A stretch of 64,000 nt of DNA from a virus (IMGVR_UViG_3300022602_000038:1-64000), one strand, 5' to 3'. Counted from the stretch's first letter, positions 3,888 through 41,151 are shown. Program-made: numbers and translations. Notes: generated by a model from the letters alone, not told the origin.

Positions 3888-3962
3888 TCCTTTGTTAAAA
3901 GAAAACAATAATTAGCTTAAAAAACAAGTTAAAAACTCCTAAGTAATTATACTTAACATATT

Positions 3963-8073: not shown

Positions 8074-8108
8074 ATTGATTTTCTTAAAAAACACGTTAAT
8101 ATAATTAT

Positions 8109-23600: not shown

Positions 23601-23755
23601 AACGTACAGTTGAAGATAATATAGAATTAGCATTAACCTCTATAGAGTTCTCTTATGATGAGTTTGTTAATACTGATCATTATTTAAAGACAAAAGCTAC
23701 ACGAGATGTACTAAATAAAGGGTCAAAAGAAGCTGGAATAGAAATAGATATATGA
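20672..23755 (+). CDS. 7-module tag-linked polyprotein
   Basis: Leader MRNQYKTLFEVYSE; internal tags at 21110, 21680, 22112, 22463, 22946, 23330; terminal tag 23714. Confidence 0.85.
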   Translation: MRNQYKTLFEVYSENVHSVAPSSILDKVDVDVAHIKARKVTDPWSSEFIKYKDYYKEYLINKAKKEGFFDNQSRIDVDSMWKEYSELTEERMREELIDNLGDEAVDYVIEQDELDEEVDENFYQDFKRNYLPKIKAEYEKKYNDIMGKPSKELGIDIDIEESKEKPSASKIMADAPPPLKIIKNVSINPKKTYYLFQQHKDTDKDSYRWYFVTWQYGTDINSALEQLERKRDFLYKSDTLNVVPLVEDCNDVFLFVYSNSKKADSINSPSLYISKEVINKVYAVPNDPRTLDSNLVKCIAEINKTTNDKTGMVALQGFKRKVEKALQTELKTKSILKKGSEEAGIEIDIEEAYQHVKSESRDPSDSPALVKGLRSKVVSLCDSILGIKDARVVNDIIRYLEEVVGPSLSYDGYADGVMQKYVSRYINKNLNSGRKVDQHLLDNMNLVYGYWSPKIKKAIADSFKQMYKEYNAWKKTQEVLKKGSEEAGMEIDIEESNNDFDYEWETLITSYPDSNIFIEWLYKHLIEEGSIDVDNDLECDIKPGFESIQIWYNSRIENASYDGNNIEENIKSEIKKLYNSPEYKNYKKIYKKRQDVLKKGSKEAGIDIDIEEATSWDEWEINFDIFKLTDKIKDWKCVNDFYKWLYLKVVNNPDFDQGHWDMYPEELDNITKKLNHYYQHVYSENMFNVAPLHIKDYIYQKSVQLGGTTHDVYVKVKNKFPEVAKDAEKVTIALIKRFYNEFRKTKEYKNCVKTQAVYKKGSEEAGIDIDIEENNEPYSDLNSSYHIFPYFKVVHNWKNKDEFTEWLYKEIDIEPGINIDSKAENWTHAQMVACYIDEHCYLTRDDYYEDTTDEDEVDSLAYEDTLKLLKKYYKKFKIWKKTQDVLKKGSKEAGMEIDIEESNNNNILLKRSNNEHDYGDIYSLVKHWEDGDLFIKWLSERVDNWPSHNKDNPLQEWWDNTVDEFSRLDPNRYNSKKRTVEDNIELALTSIEFSYDEFVNTDHYLKTKATRDVLNKGSKEAGIEIDI

Positions 23756-26700: not shown

Positions 26701-27318
26701 TTGTATTTTTTATGGAATATAGTTTTTATAGAAGACTATACTAAGGCCCTTATAAAAACAGAGCACTTAGGTACAAATGAAAAAGAAAAAGAGGAAATAC
26801 AAAAGAAATGCTTTAAATCAGCACTAAGAAATCTTGAGATAAACTATTTTAGTGAATTTAGAAAAAGTGAAATATATAAAAATTGTGTAAAAACCCAAGC
26901 AGTATACAAAAAAGGGTCTGAAGAAGCTGGTATGGAGATTGATATAGAAGAAAATGCTAAAGACTTCATGCCTGTAGGTGCTGGTGATACGTTTTATTTT
27001 ACTAAAAAATATATAGGTATTGAAAATAAAAACGAGATATTTGACTTTATAAAGTTTTTAGATACTTACATTAAACCTAAACAGCGTAAAACAGACGCTA
27101 ATACAGTTGATAGTATGTATGAGCAAATGACTTGGGATGCAGCTGAAAAGCTACCAAGCACTACTTCAAAAGGATATTATAGAGTACAAGATGAAGAACT
27201 AGCATTATGTCGTAAAAAAATTATACAACAGCTTTGGGAAAAGTATGAACTATGGCAAAAAGCGCAAGAAGTGCTTAAAAAAGGTTCCAAAGAAGCCGGG
27301 GTAGACATTGACATATAA
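23752..27318 (+). CDS. 8-module tag-linked polyprotein
   Basis: Internal tags at 24232, 24754, 25105, 25573, 26023, 26443, 26908; terminal tag 27277. Confidence 0.85.
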   Translation: MKKLDKNIAKKYSQMYDEDTFSKVPAIPYDKNLKCIELIRTFCRGEYTVDLSEKTLGELVDEFYESYEPGGEFAEYGNPFNEFSEDFPTKTEFIQHITNGHVVKGIRTEEQEFLMARKDQELQMYEELERLESEEELEPDPEFEIIKNKRIISIKTAPIFKKGSEEAGMEIDIEEGVKEDYKKFDIEIPSIGEIIDIDMKEFEKIFKNTHKDEIDFAQVGCEIVKDIDVKNEMLYVMLGKHVFNEDTLSFLKDEQITYTHKPKINTVFYSRSHKGPIFASHYFDTGFKGGGIEYWTLVPDKSHSHLPLVTAVPFSIGVDNWAEYKNWLETQKIFKKGSEEAGIEIDIEESKKTKDLYNTTEVINKIKQRFGTCTYAFCKWLYEEDFADFDSDLSLEENIRSIWENMVENGIDGGMSKSDSIEQAQNYLDSNIEMFENSKAYKNCLEIQAVYKKGSKEAGMEIDIEENAKGKSSKKQSSFYLDKKSVFDPLHPEDPSNLYNIIKQELGDFTDTFYKWLSTNTVRTHLGTFFFNPYEHLVFNLKDLWDDLFSKDYIAICEDGIDKKEAEKMCLKTALKDLESIFKQFRKSKEYEICLKKIISKKTEPIYKKGSEEAGIDIDIEENAKGKSSKKQSLSALDKKSVFAPNDPKDPSNLYNIIKQELGDCAYTFYKWLGASAIQTYSGVTAWSPEETFEQNLEDLWDDLFISGYLYTVKDGTDEKTAEKICLQSALKELRSWFREFRKSKEYKNYVKTQAVYKKGSKEAGMEIDIEENAKSKSSKKQILADLEKKFKFIDPYNPEDPINLYSILQQEFGACADSFFKGIGWHYLDSFEENLEYLWYVAFVEDYNEALEKGMDEEEAKKKCFKLALYFLEIDYFKKFRESKEYEICLKTQAVLKKGSKEAGMEIDIEENAEGKTSKKQILTDLEKKFKLVDPIWPEDPINLYNILRQEFGACADSFFKGIKKIKNYWGYREPSEDFEENLYFLWNIVFIEDYTKALIKTEHLGTNEKEKEEIQKKCFKSALRNLEINYFSEFRKSEIYKNCVKTQAVYKKGSEEAGMEIDIEENAKDFMPVGAGDTFYFTKKYIGIENKNEIFDFIKFLDTYIKPKQRKTDANTVDSMYEQMTWDAAEKLPSTTSKGYYRVQDEELALCRKKIIQQLWEKYELWQKAQEVLKKGSKEAGVDIDI

Positions 27319-27539
27319 TGTATTCATTCAACGAAGATAAAACGTATAAGGTTACTAGTATAGGATTTAATAAGATAGATGAAATAGCTATTAAAGCTAT
27401 GGTTAAGGGTATGGTTGATACTGGAGAGTATAATAGAACCTATATGCAAGAGGTTGTTATTGCCAATTACCCTAATGTTACTAGAGACAGAGCAGCTATT
27501 CTAGTATTAGAAGGTATGTATTTAGCTAGTAAAAACTAG
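27318..27539 (+). CDS. Hypothetical protein
   Basis: 73 aa ORF translationally coupled to upstream stop. Confidence 0.6.
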   Translation: MYSFNEDKTYKVTSIGFNKIDEIAIKAMVKGMVDTGEYNRTYMQEVVIANYPNVTRDRAAILVLEGMYLASKN

Positions 27540-27564
27540 TACTAGATTACATAAGTAATACAAT

Positions 27565-28911
27565 ATGAAGAATGATCAAGCTTTAAGGTTACTTGCTGAA
27601 CAGTATCAACAAGTACAGGTCAATGAAATTTTAATAGAAGGTTTCAACAGAGACCTTGAAGCTTTTGAAGCATATCTTATTAAAGAAGGCCTTTGGGACA
27701 CCATTAAACAGAAAGGTGCTGCTTTAGCATCTGGTGCAAAGAGCGCTTTAGTGCAGCCTTTAATTAAAGCTATCATGAATAAGATCGCTCAAAGCGATCC
27801 AGAAGGTTTTAAAAAGATTCAAGCAGCAGCTGCTTCTGGTGAAAGTGGTATACAACAATTATTAAATAGCCCTGAGGTTAAGCAACAACAGCAACAAATC
27901 AGTCAAGACGTTGCTGCTACAACTGAAAGTATTGATGATGGTTTATATAGCGAAGTGTTTGAAGAGGCAATCGGTTATTTAATTGAAGCTAGAGTACTAA
28001 GCAATGACCCTCGTAATGTTCGCCGTAGAGAGTTAGCTGCACAAAAGAGAGCTGCTTCTCAGCAACCAGCTTCAAATAAAGCTGCTCCAGGTAAACAACC
28101 TCCAGTGCTTAAGCCAAGTGCAAAACCAGCAGCTCCAGCAACTCCATCAGCTAAACCCACTACACCTACTACTGCTCAACCTCCAGCAGCACAAGGTGGT
28201 TTTATTCAAAAAGCTTATGCATGGATGAAACAACATCCTAAACTAACAGCCGCGGGTGGTTTGGCTTTAATGGCCGCACTTGGTGTCGCTACATTAGGTG
28301 CTGGTGGTATTGTTCCTTTAATTGCTTCAGTAGCACATGGTGCTGCAGCAGGTGCTGCAGGTGCTGGTGTTGTTGGTGGTGCTTTAAAGGGTGGTGCTAA
28401 TGTAGTAGGTCAAATGTCTAAAGGCGGTAAGGTAGACTGGAAACAGGCTGGTAAAGCTGCTTTACAAGGAGCTAAAGCTGGTGCTAAAGCTGGTGCTGTT
28501 GCCGGTGGTGTAGGTGCTGCATTAGGTGGACTTATTGCTGGTGGTGTTAAGATCGCACATGGATTGCAATCAGTTTTACAAGGCGGTAGTGGTACAGTAT
28601 CATTAAACGATTTACATCAAGCAACTCAATCTGCTCAACAAGTTGGTACACATAAGAGTGCTTTAAGTCAGGAAGTTGATCAGATTAATGCAGATTGTGA
28701 CGCTAAAGCAAATGCAATGCAATCATTAGGTCTTAAAAGCGCTACAATTTATGGCGATGGTAATGGAGCATTCCACATACAAGGTAATGACGGTATGGTT
28801 CACAACTTTAATGCCCAAGGTGTTGAAATTGGTAAATCCGCCGCTAGTGCAGCTCAGTCAGCTGCTACTTCAGCACCTAATGCTGCTGGAAAATTAGATA
28901 CAGGATTTTAA
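27565..28911 (+). CDS. Leader-bearing Ala/Gly-rich protein with hydrophobic segments (putative internal/ejected virion protein)
   Basis: TAAGTA 27552; leader MKNDQALRLLAEQYQQVQVNE; several L/I-x-E sites; GxxxG-rich hydrophobic region. Confidence 0.7.
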   Translation: MKNDQALRLLAEQYQQVQVNEILIEGFNRDLEAFEAYLIKEGLWDTIKQKGAALASGAKSALVQPLIKAIMNKIAQSDPEGFKKIQAAAASGESGIQQLLNSPEVKQQQQQISQDVAATTESIDDGLYSEVFEEAIGYLIEARVLSNDPRNVRRRELAAQKRAASQQPASNKAAPGKQPPVLKPSAKPAAPATPSAKPTTPTTAQPPAAQGGFIQKAYAWMKQHPKLTAAGGLALMAALGVATLGAGGIVPLIASVAHGAAAGAAGAGVVGGALKGGANVVGQMSKGGKVDWKQAGKAALQGAKAGAKAGAVAGGVGAALGGLIAGGVKIAHGLQSVLQGGSGTVSLNDLHQATQSAQQVGTHKSALSQEVDQINADCDAKANAMQSLGLKSATIYGDGNGAFHIQGNDGMVHNFNAQGVEIGKSAASAAQSAATSAPNAAGKLDTGF

Positions 28912-28922
28912 ATAAAAGTTAA

Positions 28923-29054
28923 ATGACACAAACAGTTATTGTATTTGGAGTAGTGATTGGGGCAGTTGTTTATAGTATCCGTAAAGCGTTTGTAAATAAA
29001 TCCAAATGCTGTACTTGTGGTAAATGTAAATGTAAAGACAAGTTAAAGAAATAA
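28923..29054 (+). CDS. Small Cys-rich membrane protein (FeoB-associated-like architecture)
   Basis: Not in track; MTQTVIVFGVVIGAVVYSIRKAFVNKSKCCTCGKCKCKDKLKK. Confidence 0.6.
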   Translation: MTQTVIVFGVVIGAVVYSIRKAFVNKSKCCTCGKCKCKDKLKK

Positions 29055-29090
29055 CTTGAACTTTTATTCTTGTGTACCATAATATGGTGT

Positions 29091-29393
29091 ATGAGAGCTT
29101 ATTCAGCCATCCCAGGTCTAATCACCCACAAAGTTTGGTTACATGATCCAATTGCTCCATCTGTTTATTTAAAAGAAAACGGATATAAGGAATGGTGGTT
29201 AAACAATTTATTGCACCGAGAAGATGGTCCAGCAATTGAGCATATTAACGGGGATAGGGAATACTATCTAAATGGTACACGACATAGAACTGATGGTCCA
29301 GCTATTATTTTTAAAAATAAGACCTATTTTGAGTACTGGGTTGACGGAAAACAGTTAACTGAACAAGAATTTAAACACAATTATCCTGTATAA
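29091..29393 (+). CDS. LHRxDGPA-repeat protein
   Basis: LHREDGPAIE, RHRTDGPAII; start moved to ATG 29091 after TTGAAC-N16-CATAAT. Confidence 0.75.
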   Translation: MRAYSAIPGLITHKVWLHDPIAPSVYLKENGYKEWWLNNLLHREDGPAIEHINGDREYYLNGTRHRTDGPAIIFKNKTYFEYWVDGKQLTEQEFKHNYPV

Positions 29394-29474
29394 AATCCCA
29401 ATTACACTTTATTATATCCGTTAATATGTATCTATACGTACTAACGCTCACTGTGGAATACTAGAAATACTAAT

Positions 29475-29663
29475 ATGAGACAAAGAATACTACAAGTAAC
29501 CAAAGAAGCTTTCAATAACATCTATGGTAATGCTTATCTAAAAGGCAAGTACGGAGATGAATGGGTTGAGGTAATGTTAAAAGACCTTGCAAGAGAGGGC
29601 ACGGTTGTTAAGTTCTTAGATGTTGAGAAAAAAGAAACTAAAAGAGAAGTAAATAAGCTATAA
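29475..29663 (+). CDS. Hypothetical protein, paralog of 38034..38189
   Basis: F...Y.N.YL..KY.D.W..V....L......F.D shared. Confidence 0.7.
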   Translation: MRQRILQVTKEAFNNIYGNAYLKGKYGDEWVEVMLKDLAREGTVVKFLDVEKKETKREVNKL

Positions 29664-29664
29664 C

Positions 29665-29862
29665 ATGAAAAAGAAATCCATTATTAAACAAACAGCTTCT
29701 TGGCTTGTGATGGTTCAAAAGAATTCAAGAACGCAAAGCCATTATGTTGAGTTGCCAACCTCTCTTGTAAACGAATTAGGTTGGACAAATGATGATGCTC
29801 TTATTTGGACTCCACAAGAGGGTGGTTCGTTTAAGGTATCCAAGGTAGAAAGAAAAAAGTGA
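29665..29862 (+). CDS. AbrB/MazE-like DNA-binding protein
   Basis: VELPTSLVNELGWTNDDALIW. Confidence 0.6.
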   Translation: MKKKSIIKQTASWLVMVQKNSRTQSHYVELPTSLVNELGWTNDDALIWTPQEGGSFKVSKVERKK

Positions 29863-30161
29863 AAGACTATCTTCGTTATTTAATTGATGAGGGATTTGCG
29901 GATATTAGGTACTGGTTTGATGAAAATGATAAAATAGAAGGACGTATATCCACTATTAAAGAGTATGAGCCATTATACCTTGAATCAGATGAAGAGGATT
30001 ATAAAGGAACTTTACTTTTGTGGCGGGATTATGGTAAATGCTATACCTATAAAACTACAAGAGAATTTTTTGTTAACTATGGTAAGAGGTGTTTAAATGA
30101 AAGTCAAGCTCTCTTACAATCAAATAAATGGATAAGAGAAATAAAAGAAGCATACCGTTAA
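29859..30161 (+). CDS. Hypothetical protein
   Basis: 100 aa ORF. Confidence 0.6.
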   Translation: MKDYLRYLIDEGFADIRYWFDENDKIEGRISTIKEYEPLYLESDEEDYKGTLLLWRDYGKCYTYKTTREFFVNYGKRCLNESQALLQSNKWIREIKEAYR

Positions 30162-30170
30162 ACCTATACT

Positions 30171-30302
30171 ATGAAGATAATAAAGCACTTAACATATCAG
30201 GAACCATTACCTTCAACTACTTCAGGCAAGATATGGTATTATGCTAAATGGTTATTGTTAGGAGTTATTATAGGTTTCCTCTTTGGGTGTATCTTTTTAT
30301 AA
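30171..30302 (+). CDS. Small C-terminally anchored membrane protein
   Basis: Not in track; MKIIKHLTYQEPLPSTTSGKIWYYAKWLLLGVIIGFLFGCIFL. Confidence 0.55.
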   Translation: MKIIKHLTYQEPLPSTTSGKIWYYAKWLLLGVIIGFLFGCIFL

Positions 30303-30346
30303 GCTATATAGATTGGATTCAACTAGTACTTCAGATAAGTAATAAG

Positions 30347-31816
30347 GTGCGCAACCAATACAAACTTTTAGCAGAAAAATACATTCAGATTAAAGAATGG
30401 GTAAACAAAGAAGATGAATACTTAGCAAATATTGATTTTGATAAATCACCTGAAAGCATTCAAAATAAAATTATTGATTTAGTGATAGAGCCTGAAACGA
30501 TTGAGAGTTTTAAAGTTGAGGATTACTGGGTAGATGATCATTTGCTATGTTACGGGGTTATCATAAACGATTTAAAGCTTAGTTTTTGGTGGCAAGACGA
30601 CCCTGAAGATACAGATGAAGCGGATGATCAACCACCTAAAAATTCAATGTATGTTGTGTTAGATAAAATGTGTAATAATGGTAATCTTCAATTAAAAGAC
30701 CACCCTAAATTACAAAAAGAGGTAGCAAATTTATTAAAAGTACATTTTATTAGAGATGATTCTCTTATAAAGAGCCGCTTTGAAAAAAAGAAAATCGATC
30801 CAATATATAAAAAAGGTTCTGAAGAAGCTGGTATAGAGATTGATATAGAAGAAGCTTACCAGCAGGTAATATCTGAAGAGAGGAATCCAGATGATCCACC
30901 TGCTTTAGTTAATTTTTACAACGGGGAATTAGTAGAATTATTAGGTAAAATACTAGGTATAAAAGATGCTAGAGAAGTTAATAATATTATAAAATTTTTG
31001 GAAGAGGTGGTAGGGCCTAGTCTAGGTTATCAGGACTATGCAGGCGCTGCAATGCAAAGGTACGTAAACGAATATATAGATAAAAATCTTAACGGTAAAG
31101 ATTTTTTGGATCCGCGTATATACGATTATATAAATATTAATTATAATTGGTCGTCAAAACCGCCAAAAATTAAAAAAGCTATCGCTGATAGCTTTAAGCA
31201 AATGTACAAAGAATATACTGTGTGGAAAAAAACACAAGAAGTACTTAAAAAGGGTTCTGAAGAAGCTGGTATAGAGATTGATATAGAAGAAGGTGTTGAA
31301 GAAGACTATAAAAAATTCGATATTGAAATACCAAGGGTAGGAGATATTGCTCAAGTTAATCCGGAAGAGTGGGATAAAATTTATAAAAACACTTTTAAAA
31401 ACAAAACTCATTATACGAAATTTGGGACATTAGTAGTTACAGATATAGATGTAAAAAATGAAATGTTATATGTAGTACTAGGTAAATATAAAAAACAGGA
31501 ATCTACTTTAAATTTTTTAAAAGACGAACAAATAACCTATGATCATAAACCTAAAATAAATACTATATTTTATAGCCGATTTTATAAAGTACCTATACTT
31601 GTTAATAGTTACTATAGTGTAACACAATTAGATGGTGGTGAAGCTATTGAATATTGGTTATTATGTCCCGATAAATCTCAACCGCACTTACCTTTAGCTA
31701 CCACTGTACCTTTTAGTGTCGGGGTAGATAATTGGTCTAAATATAAAAATTGGTTAAAAACTCAAAAAATACTTAAAAAGGGTTCTGAAGAAGCTGGTAT
31801 AGAGATTGACATATAA
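30347..31816 (+). CDS. 3-module tag-linked polyprotein
   Basis: Start reassigned to GTG 30347 (MRNQYKLLAEKYIQIKE) after TAAGTA 30336; tags at 30809, 31247, 31775. Confidence 0.85.
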   Translation: MRNQYKLLAEKYIQIKEWVNKEDEYLANIDFDKSPESIQNKIIDLVIEPETIESFKVEDYWVDDHLLCYGVIINDLKLSFWWQDDPEDTDEADDQPPKNSMYVVLDKMCNNGNLQLKDHPKLQKEVANLLKVHFIRDDSLIKSRFEKKKIDPIYKKGSEEAGIEIDIEEAYQQVISEERNPDDPPALVNFYNGELVELLGKILGIKDAREVNNIIKFLEEVVGPSLGYQDYAGAAMQRYVNEYIDKNLNGKDFLDPRIYDYININYNWSSKPPKIKKAIADSFKQMYKEYTVWKKTQEVLKKGSEEAGIEIDIEEGVEEDYKKFDIEIPRVGDIAQVNPEEWDKIYKNTFKNKTHYTKFGTLVVTDIDVKNEMLYVVLGKYKKQESTLNFLKDEQITYDHKPKINTIFYSRFYKVPILVNSYYSVTQLDGGEAIEYWLLCPDKSQPHLPLATTVPFSVGVDNWSKYKNWLKTQKILKKGSEEAGIEIDI

Positions 31817-31994
31817 AAAATTTATGAATTCATTAAGTGACTGGAAGAAAATGCCTCAAGAGCATTATACTGAATATAAAGGTCGCAGAATGAAAGTCAA
31901 AGAAGTAGTTGCCTTCTTAGAAGGAGAGCTTAAAAGAGTAGATGAACTATTAAAGCGCTCTGAAAAAGATAAACAAACAACTAACATAAAATGA
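31806..31994 (+). CDS. Hypothetical protein (start uncertain, perhaps ATG 31824)
   Basis: Short ORF in operon. Confidence 0.5.
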   Translation: MTYKKFMNSLSDWKKMPQEHYTEYKGRRMKVKEVVAFLEGELKRVDELLKRSEKDKQTTNIK

Positions 31995-32218
31995 ACAGAC
32001 AAGAACAACAAACCATTGATATGAAATGGATGTTAAAGTTTTACGGTTATAAGACCGAAGACAATCTAAAGTTTACAAAGGTAGTGGGTAAGAATATAGC
32101 CCGATCGGTTACCTTTCTAGAAGACTTTAAAGTAGCTATTAAGTACTTAAACAAAGAGACCAAGTTTACGTTCTCTGAAACTATGTTAATTGAGGACGGG
32201 TTTAATTGGATAGCATAA
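31991..32218 (+). CDS. Hypothetical protein
   Basis: 75 aa ORF. Confidence 0.6.
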   Translation: MNRQEQQTIDMKWMLKFYGYKTEDNLKFTKVVGKNIARSVTFLEDFKVAIKYLNKETKFTFSETMLIEDGFNWIA

Positions 32219-32227
32219 AAAAATAAC

Positions 32228-32416
32228 ATGACATTATTAGAAGCGTTTAAGCATGTGCAGTACTTTGCAGATAATTACTATCAAGGTAGTGTAACCAAAG
32301 CTGTTGCAGCCCTAGAAGCCTCTCACGAACATATAACAGATGATAGTAAAGAGGCACTAACTCTGTTTAAAGAGTGGCAACAAAGAATGAATAACTGGTT
32401 AGAGTATGTAAAATGA
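32228..32416 (+). CDS. Hypothetical protein
   Basis: 62 aa ORF. Confidence 0.6.
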   Translation: MTLLEAFKHVQYFADNYYQGSVTKAVAALEASHEHITDDSKEALTLFKEWQQRMNNWLEYVK

Positions 32417-32469
32417 GACTTAAAGAATAGCTTGATAACACCTTAAGAATAGTATAAGTATTAATATAT

Positions 32470-32823
32470 ATGCGCGACCAATATAAAGTTTTACTAGAAA
32501 GATATCAGGAAATGCCTTCTAATGAACCAGAAGAGGAACCAGAAATGGATATGGACGAAGAAGAAGGTAACCATGAACTAATAGTTAGATATGAATTTGT
32601 TATGGAAACAGATGATAAGGTGCTTAGTAAGCTTGATAGAATAGCTGCTCAAGTAGGAATAACAGAAGGGTATGATGGTGCTGAAATATATGGAGCTTTT
32701 AATCCACCTATGCGTCAGGTGTATTATGTCAGTAAAGATGTCAGGCAATTAGAGAAATTAGCTGATCTTATTGTTTCACAAATACCTGATATAGAGTTTG
32801 AAACTTACATACAAGAAGCGTAA
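32470..32823 (+). CDS. Leader-bearing acidic protein
   Basis: TATAAGTA 32453; MRDQYKVLLERYQE. Confidence 0.75.
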   Translation: MRDQYKVLLERYQEMPSNEPEEEPEMDMDEEEGNHELIVRYEFVMETDDKVLSKLDRIAAQVGITEGYDGAEIYGAFNPPMRQVYYVSKDVRQLEKLADLIVSQIPDIEFETYIQEA

Positions 32824-32829
32824 TAAAGT

Positions 32830-33189
32830 ATGCGCAACCGGTACAAAGTACTAGAAGAGGCATATGATAAAGTAAAAGAGAACAATTGGTGGGAGGAGCT
32901 TAAGAAAAAGAACCCTATTTTATATGCCAAGCACAGAGAGAAGTACAAGGCCAAGATGCGCGAGTACAACAAAAAGAGGTTAGATGCAATTAAACCAGAC
33001 AGAAAACCTAAACCAGAAAAGCCATCTGGTTTAGTGCACCCAACAGTGCCAAGAGCAATACAAAGTGCGCAATGGTGGAGGGATTTAAAAGCACAAAACC
33101 CAGAAGAATACGCTAGAAGAAACGCCATAAAGACTCAAAGAGCTAGAGAAAGAAGAGCACAGCTAAAGAACACCAATAAGGCAAGCTAA
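32830..33189 (+). CDS. Leader-bearing basic protein with two WW..LK..NP..YA repeats
   Basis: MRNRYKVLEEAYDKVKE; WWEELKKKNPILYA and WWRDLKAQNPEEYA. Confidence 0.75.
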   Translation: MRNRYKVLEEAYDKVKENNWWEELKKKNPILYAKHREKYKAKMREYNKKRLDAIKPDRKPKPEKPSGLVHPTVPRAIQSAQWWRDLKAQNPEEYARRNAIKTQRARERRAQLKNTNKAS

Positions 33190-33217
33190 AAAAAGGTAAA
33201 AAAAAGGTAATATTTTG

Positions 33218-33246
33218 TTGCCTTTATACCTTAAAGTATGCATAAT
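33218..33246 (+). promoter_or_regulatory. Sigma70-type early promoter with A-tract UP region
   Basis: TTGCCT-N17-CATAAT preceded by aaaaaaaggt x2; similar upstream context at 39182-39206. Confidence 0.65.
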
Positions 33247-33293
33247 GTACGTATAATAAAAGAAACAATTACGTTTCATTATTATAATGTTCT

Positions 33294-33554
33294 ATGAAAG
33301 TTAAAAATCATCTATTATCAAAGAAATCTCTACCTATTGATACAACCATACCAGTACGTTATGCCACTCAACTTAAAAACAAGAAAGGTGAATGGTACTT
33401 TCCAGGTGGTACATTAACGCACGATTCAATGAGAAGTGCTAACAAGATACTAAAGGTTTATAGCCTTGGACCTAAATCGTTTAAGGATGCCGTTGGTAAG
33501 ACTGTTAGATTTATTAGATTTGACCCGGTTATTGTTAAAGAAGTAGAGCTATAA
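33294..33554 (+). CDS. Basic hypothetical protein
   Basis: 86 aa ORF between promoter and terminator. Confidence 0.65.
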   Translation: MKVKNHLLSKKSLPIDTTIPVRYATQLKNKKGEWYFPGGTLTHDSMRSANKILKVYSLGPKSFKDAVGKTVRFIRFDPVIVKEVEL

Positions 33555-33560
33555 CATATT

Positions 33561-33595
33561 AAAAGGATATATCTTAATTGGTATATCCTTTTTTT
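33561..33595 (+). terminator. Intrinsic terminator
   Basis: aaaaggatatat...gtatatccttttttt. Confidence 0.75.
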
Positions 33596-33623
33596 ATTGT
33601 ATTATAATGATAAGTAATGGTAC

Positions 33624-34103
33624 ATGAGGAGTCAATATAAAGTTTTAGCAGAAGCTTATAATAGGGTACTTGAAACAAGTAAGCCTATTACAAAAGAAGA
33701 CACCTCTAATGAGTGGTACAATGATGCAAGAAAGCAGATAGATAGTTCCGACGGAGCCTACGGGTTTTCTTTCTTTAAAACAATAAAGGATTGGCCACAT
33801 CCAGATGAATTTATAAAGTTTTTATGTAAACACATATACGGTGTTAGTGTAGATTATTTTGAAATAGTTACGTATGGTATTGATAAATTCATTACTACGA
33901 TGTTTGGACATGAGGTAGACAGTATTGCAGGGGATATAAGAGATAAGAACCCGCATTTAAGTCATAAAGAGATAAATGATATTTCAGATAAATTAGCGGT
34001 AAAAAAACTAAAAGAATATTATAACCAATTTAAAACTTACCAAAAGGCTCAAGCAGTACTTAAAAAAGGTTCCGAAGAATCCGGAGTAGACATAGACATA
34101 TAA
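33624..34103 (+). CDS. Single-module protein with both leader and tag
   Basis: TAAGTA 33611; MRSQYKVLAEAYNRVLE ... KKGSEESGVDIDI. Confidence 0.85.
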   Translation: MRSQYKVLAEAYNRVLETSKPITKEDTSNEWYNDARKQIDSSDGAYGFSFFKTIKDWPHPDEFIKFLCKHIYGVSVDYFEIVTYGIDKFITTMFGHEVDSIAGDIRDKNPHLSHKEINDISDKLAVKKLKEYYNQFKTYQKAQAVLKKGSEESGVDIDI

Positions 34104-34107
34104 TAAC

Positions 34108-34560
34108 ATGAGAGACAACACTACCAAACTACTAGAAGAGGCATATAAAAAGGTTCAAGAAAGAGATGGACGTTTAGAGACATGGGTAAAAGGAGATCAA
34201 AATGAACGTAATGAATATAAAAACTACGTTCAAACCAAGTTTAATGGGGATTATAGAAAGGGTGCACAAGCGTGGGCTCAAATGAAGAACAGACCCACGG
34301 ATGATGTCTTTAATGATAAAGCACGTTTAGATGCATTTATGAAAGCAGACTTCGACTTCAACACATTTGATGAACAGGATTGGAACAATTATTGGCTCCT
34401 AGCACAGCACTGCGATAAAAATAGGGAATTTCAAAAGAAAGCACTAGACATTATCGAACAGTATCTTGGCACCGAACACAGTCATTATAAGTACCTTTAC
34501 GATAGATTATCCTTAGCACTGACCGGTAAACAGAAGTACGGCACACAGAATGCAAAATAA
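34108..34560 (+). CDS. Leader-bearing DUF6624-like protein
   Basis: MRDNTTKLLEEAYKKVQE; WLLAQHCD...Q...YLYDR.....GKQKYGTQ. Confidence 0.7.
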   Translation: MRDNTTKLLEEAYKKVQERDGRLETWVKGDQNERNEYKNYVQTKFNGDYRKGAQAWAQMKNRPTDDVFNDKARLDAFMKADFDFNTFDEQDWNNYWLLAQHCDKNREFQKKALDIIEQYLGTEHSHYKYLYDRLSLALTGKQKYGTQNAK

Positions 34561-34576
34561 GGACTATATAAGGGGA

Positions 34577-35044
34577 TTATCTTAGTTCACCTTCGTCAGC
34601 ATTATGATCCTTGATCCACTGTAACAGATCATTGCCCTTTAGTACATTATCAATAGTTATAGTTTCTGTGCTTGTGTAGTTGCCCGGTTCAATGCTACCC
34701 ATATTTTGATTAGAGATATGTTTATTAAACTTACCAGCATTTGTATGTATCACTAATAAAGCACCGTGTTTGGATATATCTGCACTAGAAGGGATATAGT
34801 TACCTTTGTTTAATTTTCTTTGTATCTGACTAGACAGTGCACAGTATACCGCTCTTGCCCCTTTTGAATCACTAGCAAACACCGCCGGTATGGCCTCTTT
34901 CTTATAAAGCTCTTGAGTAAACTTTCCTACAGTCGGAGTTAACCCCTGTGCAAGTATTGACGGAACATTATCAATTAGGGTACCGTGATACAGTCTAAGA
35001 CTATCATCAGTTGTATTTTCATAAAAGAAATCTCTAAACGTCAT
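34577..35044 (-). CDS. NAD-dependent ADP-ribosyltransferase/Tpt1-like fold protein with capsid-targeting-like N-terminus
   Basis: Start reassigned to ATG 35044 (MTFRDFFYE); LYHGT....SIL..GL.P and AVFAS motifs. Confidence 0.65.
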   Translation of the reverse strand: MTFRDFFYENTTDDSLRLYHGTLIDNVPSILAQGLTPTVGKFTQELYKKEAIPAVFASDSKGARAVYCALSSQIQRKLNKGNYIPSSADISKHGALLVIHTNAGKFNKHISNQNMGSIEPGNYTSTETITIDNVLKGNDLLQWIKDHNADEGELR

Positions 35045-35049
35045 TATAG

Positions 35050-35057
35050 TATTTATA
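35050..35057 (-). promoter_or_regulatory. T4-type late promoter TATAAATA
   Basis: Exact consensus on minus strand 5 nt before ATG 35044. Confidence 0.7.
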
Positions 35058-35100
35058 AAAAAGCTTGATATAATGCAATAAGTTACCATAATACGGTGTT

Positions 35101-35250
35101 ATGAGTAACTTTAACTGTGAACAATATGTACTAGATAACTACGGTGAAGAAATAGTAGATATGTTCGTAGAGGAGTATGGTATATATGCTACAACATATC
35201 TATATAGCTTAACACAGGATGAAGTAGATGATGTATTAGCTAAGTACTAA
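35101..35250 (+). CDS. Small acidic early protein
   Basis: Not in track; MSNFNCEQYVLDNYGEEIVDMFVEEYGIYATTYLYSLTQDEVDDVLAKY after TTGATA-N16-CATAAT. Confidence 0.65.
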   Translation: MSNFNCEQYVLDNYGEEIVDMFVEEYGIYATTYLYSLTQDEVDDVLAKY

Positions 35251-35251
35251 T

Positions 35252-36472
35252 ATGAGAGATAGGACTACCATACTACTAGAAGAGGCATATGAAAAGGTTA
35301 AAGAAGCGGCTATACTACCGGATGAATCTAAAGTTGATAAAGTAATGGATATATTGAACAAAGCACAACAGTTAAGACAGCAAGGATATAGTGTAAAAAA
35401 AACAGAACAAAATGCAATAAAAGAGTTGGCACTTCTTAATATAACCATTAAGGATTTGGAAGCGCCTATAGGCGCCGGGATTGTATACAATCCCATCAAT
35501 TTTTATGATACAGGAAGAATAGTAATTAGTAGAGATTTATTTAAAAGGTACATAGACTTGCCCTTTAGTAAAAGTAAGGTCGAGTGTAAACATAGAGAGA
35601 AAGTAATGAGACGATTAATCGGTCACGAATATATTCATCAATTGCAACTTATACGTAAATTAAAAAGGATCCATTCATTAAATAAGCCTGCAGGCATCTA
35701 TGATAATGAAGAAAGGATCAATTCATTAAAAAAGCTTGCAGGCATCTATAATAATGAAGTACGGTATCATAGCCGCCATTTTGATAATAAAGACCCTAAG
35801 TTTTATTATAACAATTATAACGAAATAATGACCTATGCCTATGAAATGGCAAAGAAGATATACGATAAGTTGAATATAGATAAGTACAAAGCAAGGAACT
35901 TTACCAAGGATCAAATTTACAAAGTAGTACAAAGGTTTATGCAAGTAGATAGATTTGCTACAAACAAAATGAGTAAAGAAATTGTTCAGCACCTCACCCC
36001 AGATAATGTAAAACGGTACTACAAGTACATTTACGATTATGTAGGACAGTTGTATGATGGTATATTAAAAGAACCAAACAATAAGGTAAGGGATTCATTA
36101 AACGAAAAGGGTGTTATAGTTAGTGGAAGATTTTATGGTCAAACGATACAAGACTATGTAGAGAGGTTTTTACCTAAGCATTTTAAAGAAAAAAATAAAG
36201 TCAACAAAGAAGAATTATTAGACTTTGTAAAGTATATTCAAGATAATATCTATAAACATATACCAGTTACTCGTACTAAATTCTCCAGTAAAAATGTATT
36301 ACCTTTATTGTATCTAGCAAATAAGATTATACTAAGTAATCCTAATTTAACTTCAAATGCAGTATATAAACAAGTATTAGAGTTCCTTTATAAAGAGTAC
36401 ACCTACCATAAGAAGACACAAGCAGTACTTAAGAAGGGCTCTAAAGAAGCAGGCATTGATATAGATATATAA
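35252..36472 (+). CDS. Leader- and tag-bearing protein with zincin-like HExxH domain
   Basis: MRDRTTILLEEAYEKVKE; GHEYIHQLQ...Y....NEI..YAYE; ends KKGSKEAGIDIDI. Confidence 0.8.
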   Translation: MRDRTTILLEEAYEKVKEAAILPDESKVDKVMDILNKAQQLRQQGYSVKKTEQNAIKELALLNITIKDLEAPIGAGIVYNPINFYDTGRIVISRDLFKRYIDLPFSKSKVECKHREKVMRRLIGHEYIHQLQLIRKLKRIHSLNKPAGIYDNEERINSLKKLAGIYNNEVRYHSRHFDNKDPKFYYNNYNEIMTYAYEMAKKIYDKLNIDKYKARNFTKDQIYKVVQRFMQVDRFATNKMSKEIVQHLTPDNVKRYYKYIYDYVGQLYDGILKEPNNKVRDSLNEKGVIVSGRFYGQTIQDYVERFLPKHFKEKNKVNKEELLDFVKYIQDNIYKHIPVTRTKFSSKNVLPLLYLANKIILSNPNLTSNAVYKQVLEFLYKEYTYHKKTQAVLKKGSKEAGIDIDI

Positions 36473-36516
36473 GTACGTAGTTATTACATCTACTTTAAAA
36501 TCTATATCCGTTTTGA

Positions 36517-36697
36517 GAAATTCGAATTTCTAAATCCAGAAGTGCATACAAATTTGGCTCCCTATATAGAGAACACTTATAGCCTATAGAGCACTAACTG
36601 GACTGTGCCCCGGACTATATCAGACGAAGTAGATATCACTAAGCACCTATAAAAGTAAATCCAGTAACGGAAATTTGAATTTTGTAAAACAGAAGTG
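36517..36697. repeat. Left pair of 28-bp palindrome-core repeats
   Basis: gaaattcgaatttctaaatccagaagtg at 36517; degenerate copy at 36670. Confidence 0.85.
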
Positions 36698-36875
36698 CAA
36701 CTAATTACGGAAGCACTATTGGAAATGAAATAGAGAGAAATGGAATACAGGAGAAAAATGTGTGGAGATGAGTGGAGTGTATTAAACTAAGTCTCTCCGC
36801 CAATTTTTTTCAAGCTTTTTTTTGCAAAATTTTGTAATATGGCTTTTTTTATTGCACATTCTAAGGTATGTTTAT

Positions 36876-37244
36876 ATGAATAACACGTGGAGGTATAGTG
36901 TCCCGACTAGGAGTGATTTGCCAATATATGTTTCTTTTGGTGATGTCAACGATTATGATATACGGTTATTTGACAAGGAGGTACCTGCAGGTAAGGTGTT
37001 ATGGGTGCATGCAGATATACCTAAGTTACCGGTCAATAAGGAGCAAACGGTAATAGACTCTAGGTTTCAGGAGCTAGCTAACAGTGATAGTACAACAGAG
37101 TGGTTTGATAACGACTGGTTTGCTGCAGGGTTCCACTATGCTGTAGAGGTGATACATAATGAGGTACAGAAGGTTAGTACTAAGAAATCCACCAAAACAT
37201 CTCCTTTTATTGATCCGGCAATATATTTCAAAAAAGATATATAG
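36876..37244 (+). CDS. Hypothetical early protein
   Basis: Start reassigned to ATG 36876 (MNNTWRY). Confidence 0.6.
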   Translation: MNNTWRYSVPTRSDLPIYVSFGDVNDYDIRLFDKEVPAGKVLWVHADIPKLPVNKEQTVIDSRFQELANSDSTTEWFDNDWFAAGFHYAVEVIHNEVQKVSTKKSTKTSPFIDPAIYFKKDI

Positions 37245-37475
37245 CAATTTAATAAGGTGAGTCTATAAAAGAATCCCTTAATCAACTGTATTACATCCCT
37301 TTTATCCCTATTAGAAATAATAATTGGAGTATTCGTATATAAACTTTCTTTATATTGGATTTTTTTGGAGTATAACTTATAAGTTGCTCTAATAGCACCT
37401 GTATAAAATTAATGATGTTAATAGAGAGTGTAAATTTCAATAAATTATTAGATTTATTTGGATTAAAAAAAAGAG

Positions 37476-37504
37476 TTGCCTGTTATTAAAAAATAGCCTA
37501 AAAT
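37476..37504 (+). promoter_or_regulatory. Sigma70-type promoter with no adjacent ORF
   Basis: TTGCCT-N17-TAAAAT. Confidence 0.6.
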
Positions 37505-37507
37505 GAA

Positions 37508-37580
37508 GTACTGGGGTGAAAGCGCCGTAATCTGCAGTACCCCAATGGCTAGGCGCTTCTTGGAGGAGGTTCCTTATACG
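37508..37580. ncRNA. Candidate pseudoknotted small RNA
   Basis: GC-rich island; tggggt/acccca and aagcgcc/ggcgctt crossing stems; convergent promoters on both sides. Confidence 0.4.
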
Positions 37581-37658
37581 CCAATAATGAGGATTTAATT
37601 AAAAAGGTCAACTAAAAAAGGGATTATTTAATAAAAAAAAGAGTTGTAATATTACAAA

Positions 37659-37734
37659 AAATCTAGATTATTAATTTTGTATTAGTTATAAAACACTTAT
37701 AATTAAACATTAACAAAATAAACCAAAATAATAA
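37659..37734 (+). repeat. 76-bp exact direct repeat (promoter/leader cassette), copy 1
   Basis: Identical to 38294..38369; ends 1 nt before an ATG. Confidence 0.9.
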
Positions 37735-37735
37735 T

Positions 37736-37972
37736 ATGAGTAATAATAAAAGAGAAGTTAAATTAATAAATTGTAACTTATTAGATGTTAAAAATAACAA
37801 ACTAATTAAAATGGAGGGGTATGTTAAAATTGTAAATTATGATAATAAAGAGTATTTTGAGGTAAATTTAAGAGATGGGGATTTTAATAATGAGAAGTAT
37901 ATTTTAATAGGAAGTAATGAGAAGTTTAAGATTTTTGGTAAAGATGATGATGGAGGATATTTTGTAATTTAA
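37736..37972 (+). CDS. Hypothetical early protein (C-depleted)
   Basis: 78 aa ORF after cassette repeat. Confidence 0.7.
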   Translation: MSNNKREVKLINCNLLDVKNNKLIKMEGYVKIVNYDNKEYFEVNLRDGDFNNEKYILIGSNEKFKIFGKDDDGGYFVI

Positions 37973-38033
37973 ATAAATTAAGTAATTTGAATTTTAGTGT
38001 TGATTTAATAATAAAATAATATAGATTAATAAT

Positions 38034-38189
38034 ATGAAAAATAATTATAAAATAATTAAATTAAGTGTTGAAGAATTTATAGAAAAATATTATAATAAGT
38101 ATTTAGAAGAAAAATATGAAGATAATTGGATGGATGTAGTTATAGAAGAATTATTAAAAGATAATATTAAAATAGAATTTATAGATTAA
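38034..38189 (+). CDS. Small acidic protein encoded without any cytosine
   Basis: Not in track; MKNNYKIIKLSVEEFIEKYYNKYLEEKYEDNWMDVVIEELLKDNIKIEFID; paralog of 29475 ORF; flanked by ~45-bp repeats at 37975 and 38193. Confidence 0.7.
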   Translation: MKNNYKIIKLSVEEFIEKYYNKYLEEKYEDNWMDVVIEELLKDNIKIEFID

Positions 38190-38293
38190 TAGAAATTAAG
38201 TAGTTTGAATTTTAGTGTTGATTTAAATAATAAAATAAAAAAATAATTAAAAAAAGTTTGTAATAATGCAAAAAAGAGTTGCATTAATAAGAG

Positions 38294-38369
38294 AAATCTA
38301 GATTATTAATTTTGTATTAGTTATAAAACACTTATAATTAAACATTAACAAAATAAACCAAAATAATAA
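38294..38369 (+). repeat. 76-bp exact direct repeat, copy 2
   Basis: Identical to 37659..37734. Confidence 0.9.
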
Positions 38370-38370
38370 C

Positions 38371-38631
38371 ATGTCAGTCGAAATACAAAATAAAGTTAGT
38401 CTACCTATTAAAATCGAGAAAGGCATTAAAATGCCTTTCTCTTCTAAAGTAGCCACTCCTACTAAAAAATATAATAACTATAAAAAAATATTTAATAAAA
38501 TGCAAACAGGCGATTCTTTTATAGTAGAGCAAACAAAATTATCTGGCATTTCACAAGCATCTAAAAAATTAAACTTTAACTACATTAGTAGATCTATTAA
38601 CGATCAAGTAGTAAGAGTTTGGAAGGTATAA
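38371..38631 (+). CDS. Conserved small phage protein, putative DNA-binding
   Basis: IEKGIKMP...MQTGDSFIV...R....VRVWK motif. Confidence 0.7.
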   Translation: MSVEIQNKVSLPIKIEKGIKMPFSSKVATPTKKYNNYKKIFNKMQTGDSFIVEQTKLSGISQASKKLNFNYISRSINDQVVRVWKV

Positions 38632-38658
38632 CTAATACAACAATACACAACAAAACTA

Positions 38659-38691
38659 GCTTGCCCTTTTAATTAAGGGCAAGCATTTTTT
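38659..38691 (+). terminator. Intrinsic terminator
   Basis: gcttgccctt-ttaatt-aagggcaagc-atttttt. Confidence 0.75.
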
Positions 38692-38699
38692 ATTTAAAA

Positions 38700-38810
38700 A
38701 TGAAAGCTTTCTTAATTATCTCTACCCTAATCTTATTCGTTATTTTCTGGTTCTTATTAGATATGAACTCTTTATTAGAAGAGTTAGAAGAAGAGGATTT
38801 TTACGAATAA
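38700..38810 (+). CDS. Small TM protein with acidic tail
   Basis: Not in track; MKAFLIISTLILFVIFWFLLDMNSLLEELEEEDFYE. Confidence 0.55.
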   Translation: MKAFLIISTLILFVIFWFLLDMNSLLEELEEEDFYE

Positions 38811-38865
38811 TATAGTTGCAAGGTTTAATAAAAACAGATATATTATAAGAGTAAACTAAAATAAC

Positions 38866-39012
38866 ATGAACAACAAAAATATATTAAATAAAATCAGTAA
38901 AGTAGACGAACTCTTACAAGAATTAAAGGAGTTATATGATGCAGGTAAAATGACAGTAGAGGAAGAAGCTAGTTATGAAAACTTTCTCTATAATTTAAAC
39001 GACACAATTTAA
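38866..39012 (+). CDS. Small acidic helical protein (SHOCT-like motif)
   Basis: Not in track; LQELKELYDAGKMTVEEE; own TTGCAA promoter. Confidence 0.6.
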   Translation: MNNKNILNKISKVDELLQELKELYDAGKMTVEEEASYENFLYNLNDTI

Positions 39013-39053
39013 AGCTATTAAAATAGTGTTGATTTAATAATATTATATAATAG

Positions 39054-39090
39054 AGGAGATATATATTAGGTTATATATCTCCTATTTTTT
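39054..39090 (+). terminator. Intrinsic terminator
   Basis: aggagatatata...tatatatctcct-atttttt. Confidence 0.75.
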
Positions 39091-39235
39091 ATATGCTTCC
39101 AATTATACCTGCCCACACCTCCCCATTATTATAATAAAACTTTCTCATTAAAAGGCAACTTAAAAAGGATTTTATTTTCTTAAAAAAGGATAATATTTTG
39201 TTGACCTTACTAATAATTTAATCCACATTGTTTGT

Positions 39236-39841
39236 ATGAAACGATACCAACAACCAATTGCAGTAGATGGGTGTATGGCTAGTGATTACAATCATCTTAC
39301 ACTCAATATAAAAGGTTTAAAGAAAGAAGAACAACCACCTTTAAACCAGTCAAGCTATTTAGTTTACAATGCAACTGGTGCATATGTAGGGTGGATAGAT
39401 GATAAATCTGTAAAGAAGTACCTTTACAGCTACTTACCTTATCATTATAGCAATTTAACCAAGAGTACAGTAAAGGGATCTAACATTAAACTAGTATGTA
39501 GTAAGTCTACAGGTAAGATAGTATTATTGTTTAAGTCAACTTATATAAATGAAGAGAGTGTATTAGAATTGAATGATAAGGTGGAACTAGCCAATTACTT
39601 TCTTAAACACGAACTCAATAACATTACATTTGACAAGGTTTATGATGGACGTCAGTATCAGATATACTGGACTGATAAGCACAATCTAGCACCACATCTT
39701 ATAAAGGTATTAGATGATAAGTTAGATAAAGTAATGAAAGAGTTCAAGCAAGAAGTTGAACGTTCAATAACAAACATAATCAAAGAAAGAGAAGTAATAA
39801 GGCTTGCCGAACAGGAAACAGGCATTACTATTGACATATGA
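39236..39841 (+). CDS. Hypothetical early protein ending in a tag-like motif
   Basis: TTGACC promoter at 39201; C-terminus RLAEQETGITIDI. Confidence 0.75.
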   Translation: MKRYQQPIAVDGCMASDYNHLTLNIKGLKKEEQPPLNQSSYLVYNATGAYVGWIDDKSVKKYLYSYLPYHYSNLTKSTVKGSNIKLVCSKSTGKIVLLFKSTYINEESVLELNDKVELANYFLKHELNNITFDKVYDGRQYQIYWTDKHNLAPHLIKVLDDKLDKVMKEFKQEVERSITNIIKEREVIRLAEQETGITIDI

Positions 39842-40842: not shown

Positions 40843-40969
40843 CATTTTACCTAACCTATTGGAGTGGGTTAGGTGGTAAGAACATAAGATGGCTCACTAG
40901 ATGGTTTGTTATTATCCATCTAGTGGGCTCATCTATTTAATATGACCTACATATATAGATCCGGTATTG

Positions 40970-41080
40970 GAAATTCGAATTTCTAAATCCAGAAGTGGTA
41001 CCAAATTTGGATGCACTACCCAATTTGACTTATGTATATAGATCCGGTATTAGAAATTCAAATATTAAAATCCAGAAGTG
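40970..41080. repeat. Right pair of 28-bp palindrome-core repeats
   Basis: Exact copy of the 36517 motif at 40970; variant at 41053; both within a ~55-bp duplicated unit. Confidence 0.85.
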
Positions 41081-41151
41081 GTACCAAATTCAAATACACT
41101 ATCTGAAACAAATAGCTTGATTAGAGTAATAAACAATATACAAACATATAA

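Follow-up and report, generated by a model that had tools for sequence, protein, structure and literature searches.

Results

A cytosine-free tract spanning two small genes

The viral DNA stretch IMGVR_UViG_3300022602_000038:1-64000 (64,000 nucleotides (nt), hereafter the window) contains, on its plus strand at exactly 37803–38268, 466 consecutive nt without a single cytosine (219 A, 169 T, 78 G and 0 C; A 47%, T 36%). The original prediction, made from the sequence alone, had described a 466-nt C-free tract over two open reading frames (ORFs) that start at 37736 and 38034, with C resuming straight after it, and computation bears out each of these points: the first C lies at 38269, and both ORFs, here called ORF A and ORF B, are present (78 and 51 amino acids (aa), respectively). 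ORF B lacks Ala, Pro, Thr, His and Gln, whereas its paralog elsewhere in the window has Ala, Thr and Gln, as had likewise been predicted. The features of the locus and its surroundings are as follows.

37803–38268, plus strand: C-free tract, 466 nt; remnant of a C-free early-gene cassette island
37736–37972, plus strand: ORF A, 78 aa; small, probably all-beta protein
38034–38189, plus strand: ORF B, 51 aa; wholly C-free
37967–38032, plus strand: IE1, intergenic cassette element of repeat family D5, 66 nt
38185–38250, plus strand: IE2, second copy of the cassette element, with TTGATT at 38218–38223; orphaned, the P2 copy and no gene coming next
37610–37738, plus strand: P1, promoter/leader copy of repeat family D3; contains C and stands where relatives have a C-free promoter spacer before ORF A
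38245–38373, plus strand: P2, second promoter/leader copy; contains C, forms the right border of the tract and drives ORF C
38371–38631, plus strand: ORF C, ordinary C-containing gene behind P2
38659–38684, both directions: two-way hairpin terminator of 10 pairs, the first one downstream of the tract
38866–39012, plus strand: C-containing gene, 48 aa, whose homolog in contig L035 (3881–4024, minus strand) is a C-free island cassette
39016–39078, plus strand: IE3, partial third copy of the cassette element (family D8), in a 63-nt C-free run; its 3' end overlaps a hairpin terminator at 39054–39083
29475–29663, plus strand: C-containing paralog of ORF B, 62 aa

The tract is thus flanked by two copies of a 129-nt promoter/leader element with a shared identical core. 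This core (about 76 nt) includes the palindrome ATCTAGAT, and the element is fused to a small gene, ORF A, in one copy and to an unrelated small gene, ORF C, in the other. IE1 carries a sigma70-type promoter (TTGATT at 38000–38005, a 16-nt spacer and TAGATT at 38022–38027) that ends 6 nt before the ATG of ORF B; folding revealed no significant stem-loop in IE1, and a search for terminators inside the tract found none. The part of ORF A that precedes the tract contains three Cs, all synonymous and all in the first 67 nt of the gene (37777, 37798 and 37802).

The runner-up C-free run is 67 nt long, whether one considers the window or the entire record of 140,720 bp, in which the longest G-free run also measures 67 nt; every other 466-nt window of the genome contains at least 35 C and at least 46 G. 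Comparable C-free runs scattered through the genome, which the original prediction had named as a reason for doubting it, were thus not found above 67 nt, and its other concern, an assembly artefact, is answered by the recurrence of the same C-free sequences, with point differences, in 2 IMG/VR and 23 metagenome contigs. Since only about 4 × 10−11 such runs are expected per genome even with a local C frequency of 7%, and since more than 20 independent assemblies agree, neither chance nor artefact accounts for the tract; despite the roughly 83% A+T content of the region and the fact that the island touches a contig end in 14 of the 23 related contigs, chance, low-complexity DNA or misassembly is practically out of the question for genes that have intact frames and are under purifying selection.

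C-free islands of related phages

The relatives are freshwater T4-like phages represented by metagenome contigs, in which island loci were picked through homology to ORF A. Orthologs of ORF A with 94–96% identity lie in two IMG/VR contigs, within C-free runs that extend to the contig end and are at least 776 and at least 466 nt long. A metagenome scan yielded 23 loci with C-free runs of up to 2,520 nt (contig L035) and 2,407 nt (L039), both ends of which are within the contig; others extend to a contig end, with lengths of at least 2,217 and at least 2,126 nt, and two contigs lack C throughout (2,018 and 1,547 nt). The orthologous tract, to which the original prediction had pointed as informative, is therefore C-free in the relatives too. 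At the contig ends met by the island (L028–L050), assemblies seem to break, probably through repeated spacers and strain-level cassette variation.

Full islands comprise 10–15 small cassette genes in one or two convergent arrays, the convergent arrangement being found in both L035 and L039. The plus array of L035 consists of about 10 small genes (411–2836) in a C-free run at 330–2849, and its minus array of five small genes (3010–4024) in a run at 3000–4110 (1,111 nt) that is G-free on the same strand, so that the sense strand is without C in both orientations. The cassette genes of L035 have 46–104 codons. Each array opens after about 80 nt of pure A/T promoter DNA, with no G on either strand, and C resumes 10–13 nt past the final stop codon of each array. 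In such strict islands, each unit is C-free from its promoter to 10–13 nt past its stop codon, and its template is thus without G. The two L035 arrays meet at a segment of about 150 nt that has both C and G and holds the sole strong hairpin terminator (2883–2902); the 3' untranslated regions before the terminator contain ACA, UAC and ACU. Three tandem GTGTTCAAA-containing units lie in this sole C- and G-containing segment (L035:2900–2960), between the terminator hairpin and the end of the minus array. Two genes of 209 and 85 codons adjoin the left border of the island in relatives (L003:1278–2294, minus strand).

Ten genes of L035 are preceded by TTGATT, 17 nt and TATATT, ending 6 nt before the ATG, a spacing that suggests leaderless or near-leaderless messages, and other cassette junctions have AAGGAG Shine–Dalgarno sequences. 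Sigma70-type promoters together with AAGGAG junctions indicate that the host uses sigma70-type promoters and Shine–Dalgarno sites. A −10 box that ends exactly 6 nt before the ATG also precedes ordinary genes of the genome (G000 8075–8102, 88358–88385, 103226–103253, 105476–105505 and 118777–118804), and messages with little or no leader may be frequent in this phage. That the promoter class itself demands C exclusion was rejected as an explanation, because the same arrangement drives C-containing genes (at 8075, 88358, 103253, 105476 and 118804 of the genome). A core of the 17-nt spacer that is common to 20 other viral contigs was judged to be a chance match.

The order and content of cassettes vary among the window, L028, L030, L035 and L042. 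Cassettes of the L035 minus array recur in plus orientation in other contigs, where they are 14–17% diverged and still C-free in their own sense; the polarity of C exclusion thus follows gene orientation, flips within one island and survives cassette inversion. Taken together, these comparisons show that the tract of the window is an eroded two-gene remnant of a larger C-free early-gene island of freshwater T4-like phages. We also computed the cumulative G–C skew, which the original prediction had proposed as a check. The curve is lowest at 7.6 kb and peaks at 95.3 kb, where genes change orientation, and the tract falls in mid-slope and not at an extreme. This position and the polarity flip within a single island rule out a replication origin or genome end as the cause.

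An 80-nt repeat whose core is the palindrome GAAATTCGAATTTC occurs in four direct copies (36486–36565, 36639–36718, 40939–41018 and 41022–41101), which bracket a block of about 4.4 kb of small early-type genes that includes the tract, and may be recombination or binding sites. To the left of this block, at 20672–36472 of the window, several large genes repeat the peptide KKGSEEAG(I/M/V)(E/D)IDI internally and at their C termini (family D1).

Proteins written with 15 amino acids

ORF A has 74 homologs with 77–96% identity. Among the 5,663 residues of these 75 sequences there are 0 Ala and 0 Pro, and 10 residues need a C-containing codon; in the 8 close homologs of ORF B, one residue in total needs one. 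Island proteins are accordingly restricted to 15 amino acids. The ratio of non-synonymous to synonymous polymorphism (pN/pS) in ORF A is 0.30, which corresponds to purifying selection, and no reading frame is disrupted. AlphaFold modelled ORF A with four strands and with low confidence (pLDDT 61). A protein atlas gave no usable match for ORF A or for a 104-aa island protein, BLAST of positions 36500–39500 against deposited phage genomes gave no match, and Rfam and tRNA scans found nothing, excluding known RNA genes. The islands probably consist of fast-evolving immediate-early genes with a role in host takeover or counter-defence.

Selection against C in the islands

To count substitutions, we took the L035 island, chosen by ORF A homology alone, as the reference and scored every homologous position in other contigs. 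Between L035 and L029, 1,809 aligned nt contain 310 differences, of which 118 are A/G and 0 involve C. The corresponding numbers are 246 differences in 2,326 aligned nt (80 A/G, 0 involving C) for L034, and 119 differences in 2,504 aligned nt (43 A/G, 0 involving C) for L039. In the flanks of the same contigs, C/T and A/G differences are about equally common (317 vs. 348). Exclusion of C has therefore held through 17% divergence of the islands.

One clade (L033, L037, L046, L048 and L049) is leaky, with 1.5% C and ten fixed Cs in 800 nt. Its variable columns comprise 2 C/T and 51 A/G, so that C is still being purged; this implies that each added C carries a cost and that the cost is graded, not all-or-none. 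A variant in which the cost is all-or-none, the Cs of ORF A following a leader that already contains C, was rejected on the same grounds, since the leaky clade has a leaderless-type promoter and yet purges C. The islands of the five leaky contigs (800 nt from the start of ORF A) are 87–98% identical, vs. 98–100% in the 300 nt of upstream flank, as expected for mosaic or arms-race genes.

Strict islands are also without the purine-C codons AAC, GAC, GGC, ACN and GCN, and the cost is therefore independent of context. Most of the rare tolerated Cs either belong to a CTGATA box that, at cassette junctions, follows one stop codon and precedes the next start, or represent synonymous changes that create purine-C. 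Among 30 T-to-C events, 4 produced pyrimidine-C compared to 36% expected (P = 0.006 raw, and about 0.02 without homologous duplicates), a deficit that we regard as a weak hint. Taken together, these findings indicate, with high though not complete confidence, that purifying selection operates against C throughout each transcription unit, irrespective of context.

A possible role of the G-free template in a phage that probably modifies its G

We consider it a serious possibility, held with a little under even confidence, that the islands consist of swappable three-letter immediate-early genes in which the message lacks C and the template lacks G, and whose expression would be safe from a strike on C:G that is made base by base. 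Under this proposal, an agent would strike the C:G pair one base at a time, and the island genes would be built such that their expression cannot be interrupted. A more specific version, which we advance tentatively, is that the G-free template strand protects early genes in a phage that modifies its G; we rank it first among the mechanisms because the phage carries genes for such modification.

Genes for G modification (QueF, a formyltransferase and a kinase-like gene) lie beside the DNA polymerase gene of the genome. Matches to QueF_N (E = 3 × 10−28) and QueF (E = 3 × 10−17) were obtained, along with a formyltransferase domain (E = 3 × 10−6), and a 268-aa neighbour has a weak match to tRNA-guanine transglycosylase (TIGR00449, E = 0.003, 16 bits, below the family cut-off). 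The gene cluster at G000 117000–126000 (L051) includes a RecA/UvsX-like gene, QueF, a kinase-like AAA_28 gene, the formyltransferase, the 268-aa gene, a family-B DNA polymerase and a glycosyltransferase-like gene. Judged by its gene content, this region is a probable 7-deazaguanine DNA modification cassette: QueF, the formyltransferase, the kinase-like gene and the weakly transglycosylase-like gene make it probable that the phage replaces G in its DNA with a preQ1-type 7-deazaguanine. A G-less template would then offer no modified base for a host enzyme to excise, nick or bind, and nothing to hinder an unmodified host RNA polymerase, such that the genes would be readable at time zero. As G is confined to one strand, the island could not suffer breaks on both strands through damage at G.

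Several observations weigh against this proposal. A search of the genome with the Pfam transglycosylase model TGT gave no match, and neither did a comparison of the 268-aa transglycosylase-like gene with solved structures. This analysis identified no defence that attacks 7-deazaguanine DNA, and we know of none. Other genes behind the same promoter type have ordinary C, so modified G in the template is no absolute block. C resumes only 10–13 nt past the last stop codon, so that a block at this point would still leave the polymerase over the end of the last gene. In the window, ORF A has already gained three Cs, and the P1 transcript has C in its leader as well as in the first 67 nt of that gene. 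Finally, Pfam and PHROGs searches with the window ORFs and ten island proteins returned nothing meaningful, leaving the island proteins without an assignable function.

If expression of three-letter genes is indeed safe from a strike on C:G, the islands would constitute a cis-encoded counter-defence that works without any protein and from the moment of DNA entry, at the cost of proteins limited to 15 amino acids. In phages that modify G, the C-free rule would mark the genes that are to be read while the modified DNA is under attack.

Alternative explanations

Ranked second is immunity at the RNA level, in which C-less messages cannot be cut by endoribonucleases that need C; we consider it unlikely, although several features of the islands fit. 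Candidates are abortive-infection toxins of the MazF, ChpB, Kid or MqsR type, an RNase A-like enzyme or the phage's own shut-off RNase, and a single cut would inactivate a message, in line with a cost that is graded and paid per C. The unit of exclusion would be the message of each gene from start to stop, with Cs tolerated at junctions and in 3' regions, and the fast evolution of island genes is also consistent with such a conflict. Messages without ACA are reportedly resistant to MazF, a result ascribed to Suzuki et al. in 2005, which counts in favour of this explanation. However, known toxins read motifs of 3–7 nt, and one toxin would not purge C in all contexts. ACA, UAC and ACU are present in the 3' untranslated regions, where a cut would remove the protective hairpin; the other messages of the phage contain C, and no such nuclease was identified in the window.

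The next explanation is that C removal hides messages, from time zero onward, from the termination factor Rho, to which the tiny genes, untranslated spacers of about 60 nt and leaderless starts would expose them through poor shielding by ribosomes. The primary site of Rho binds 5'-YC (Y, pyrimidine), and Rut sites are biased to C over G, so that Rho reads YC on C-rich, G-poor RNA (PMC12360218, PMC13650167); its avoidance drives a purine bias of sense strands in bacteria (PMC13323073). Both arrays end at one intrinsic hairpin, and the tolerated T-to-C changes mostly yield purine-C, as a reader of YC would allow. Nevertheless, avoidance needs only that C is below G, which is already true of the ordinary genes of the phage, whereas the islands have lost purine-C codons that a YC reader would ignore, and the purge continues at 1.5% C, far below G. 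The loss of five amino acids looks too costly for the marginal gain. Rho avoidance alone is insufficient to explain the islands, and we regard it as an improbable driver.

A third alternative, to which we assign a still smaller probability, is immunity at the level of cytidine triphosphate (CTP): units that can be transcribed without CTP would escape CTP shortage or chain-terminating analogues such as the ddhCTP of prokaryotic viperins. The original prediction had raised transcripts that need no CTP, a description that holds for the strict islands of relatives, which are C-free from the promoter to just past the stop codon; the cost of C is multiplicative and paid per C, as this explanation would have it, and C-less cassettes in the laboratory work in this way. 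It does not hold for the P1 transcript of the window, which contains C, and the graded cost fits CTP starvation poorly, given that a total lack of CTP would act in an all-or-none manner. CTP is in any case required for the rest of the phage. Host RNA polymerase reportedly tolerates viperin products. The sigma70-type promoters imply that the islands are transcribed by the multisubunit polymerase of the host, whereas viperin products act on T7's own polymerase, according to work cited in a passage of PMC13128918, which also counts against this explanation.

About as improbable is a mutational hazard, in which heavily transcribed genes are attacked by a cytosine deaminase, either on their displaced non-template strand or on their RNA, and C-less lineages win. 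Such a hazard would be C-specific, bounded by the transcription unit, graded and confined to the sense strand, and the island is indeed more variable than its flanks. It can be compared to the replacements seen at C-containing positions of orthologs. L005 is the syntenic region of a more distant relative, with an ORF B ortholog of 69% identity that has nine Cs. Of these nine positions, three (synonymous or first-position sites) have T in the window; at the protein level, Thr (ACN) was replaced by Asn three times, by Lys once and by Ser once, and Gln by Glu. In the second family, comprising the window gene at 38866 and its L005 counterpart vs. the C-free L035 cassette, conserved positions show Thr replaced by Ser, Ala by Gly and Gln by Glu, with C-to-T changes mainly at synonymous sites.

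Across the non-synonymous ortholog C sites, Thr thus corresponds to Asn, Ser or Lys, Ala to Gly or Lys, and Gln to Glu, with Thr to Leu at two and Gln to Phe at one of the poorly conserved positions; the single-step C-to-T products Ile, Val and stop were never seen at these sites. We reject deamination because it would yield Ile, Val and stop codons and not the replacements found. The extreme C-to-T deamination near an origin or genome end that the original prediction had offered is contradicted by the Asn/Ser/Lys, Gly and Glu replacements, the intact frames and the pN/pS of 0.30, and the milder form of a mutational hazard likewise conflicts with transversions to conservative residues. Moreover, ten Cs are stable across the five diverged members of the leaky clade and the terminator Cs are kept, so that no overwhelming C-to-T pressure is visible; no deaminase was identified.

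Avoidance of restriction sites, or an early entry of the tract into the cell, is the least probable of the biological explanations, and we give it very little weight. A C-less strand carries no palindromic site with G or C, a statement that is true by construction. Every start codon contains G, and therefore any rule that bans G or C from one strand of coding DNA has to take the form of a sense strand without C; on its own, the dependence on gene orientation is thus no proof of a cause at the RNA level and is compatible with one at the DNA level. Selection on sites, however, would not eliminate C from all contexts, the remainder of the roughly 200-kb genome would still be cuttable, and the tract shows no sign of a genome end or skew extreme. 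Of the original suggestion of first-entering DNA that avoids restriction, the entry polarity thus finds no support and palindrome avoidance falls short of purging every C, whereas an attack that targets bases remains compatible with the data.

Comparison with known systems

The closest architectural parallel is provided by the PeSL cassettes of T4-type phages (Arbiol et al. 2010, PMC2839356; Comeau et al. 2014, PMC4122927), which have a near-consensus sigma70 promoter in a conserved intergenic element and likewise lie between small orphan early genes in variable regions, with order and content that differ among close relatives. The 17-nt promoter spacer of PeSLs recurs in ten L035 copies (TTGATT-17 nt-TATATT), and IE1 of the window has TTGATT-16 nt-TAGATT. 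PeSLs have a stem-loop (G-run, loop, C-run) upstream of the promoter, whereas the elements described here are without this G/C stem-loop half, because a G/C stem cannot be written without C; folding of the elements compared to shuffled sequences gave z-scores of +0.84, +0.10 and −0.59, which argues against a stem-loop. Neither of the two PeSL papers describes flanked genes that do without one of the nucleotides.

The Rho-avoiding purine bias of bacterial genomes (Dierksheide et al. 2026, PMC13323073) is similar in that C is below G on the sense strand, codon use is shaped by this bias and poorly ribosome-covered messages are protected. That bias amounts only to C below G; in the islands, C is 0 over kilobases at 17–23% G, purine-C is gone as well, and five amino acids are lost, which reading of YC does not explain. 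ACA-less, MazF-resistant messages and the avoidance of restriction sites by phages are also forms of cis immunity gained by deleting what an enzyme reads. They remove motifs of 3–8 nt, whereas here a whole letter is missing in all contexts, from genes, spacers and promoters; the coding messages, having no C, are trivially free of such toxin sites; the 3' untranslated region does have ACA and UAC.

Laboratory C-less and G-less cassettes, used for polymerase stalling, have the same property of being transcribed without one nucleotide up to its first occurrence. They are short, synthetic and non-coding, in contrast to a natural multi-gene coding island under selection. A literature search for cytosine-free or C-less phage genes returned only these laboratory cassettes, and we found no published description of natural genes that exclude one nucleotide over kilobases under selection. 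GRINS (2021, PMC8256042) resemble the islands in that proteins are recoded with strongly skewed nucleotide composition. They are repeats in long polyketide synthase genes, for the most part from high-GC Actinobacteria, and have been connected with gene conversion; in the islands, only the spacers of about 60 nt repeat, the A/T skew is modest, one letter is absent and the genes are short, so that the islands fall outside this class.

DpdA-type modification of phage DNA with 7-deazaguanine offers a parallel at the level of gene content, given the QueF, formyltransferase, kinase-like and weakly transglycosylase-like genes next to the DNA polymerase gene. Cui, Hutinet et al. reportedly described preQ1-type 7-deazaguanine (DpdA-type) modification systems of phages in 2023. 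We know of no paper in which such systems are connected with a template strand that lacks G in some of the genes; this link is one that we infer here.

C exclusion shows that the set of amino acids available to a protein can be overruled by selection on nucleotides, with about 15 real proteins made from 15 amino acids, and it points to an agent of the phage–host conflict whose target is either C in RNA or G in the template strand. The C-free rule also provides a simple signature for finding the earliest-acting, probably counter-defence, genes of uncultured phages. If the driver were instead Rho or motif-reading toxins, the islands would represent an extreme variant of the known avoidance strategies.

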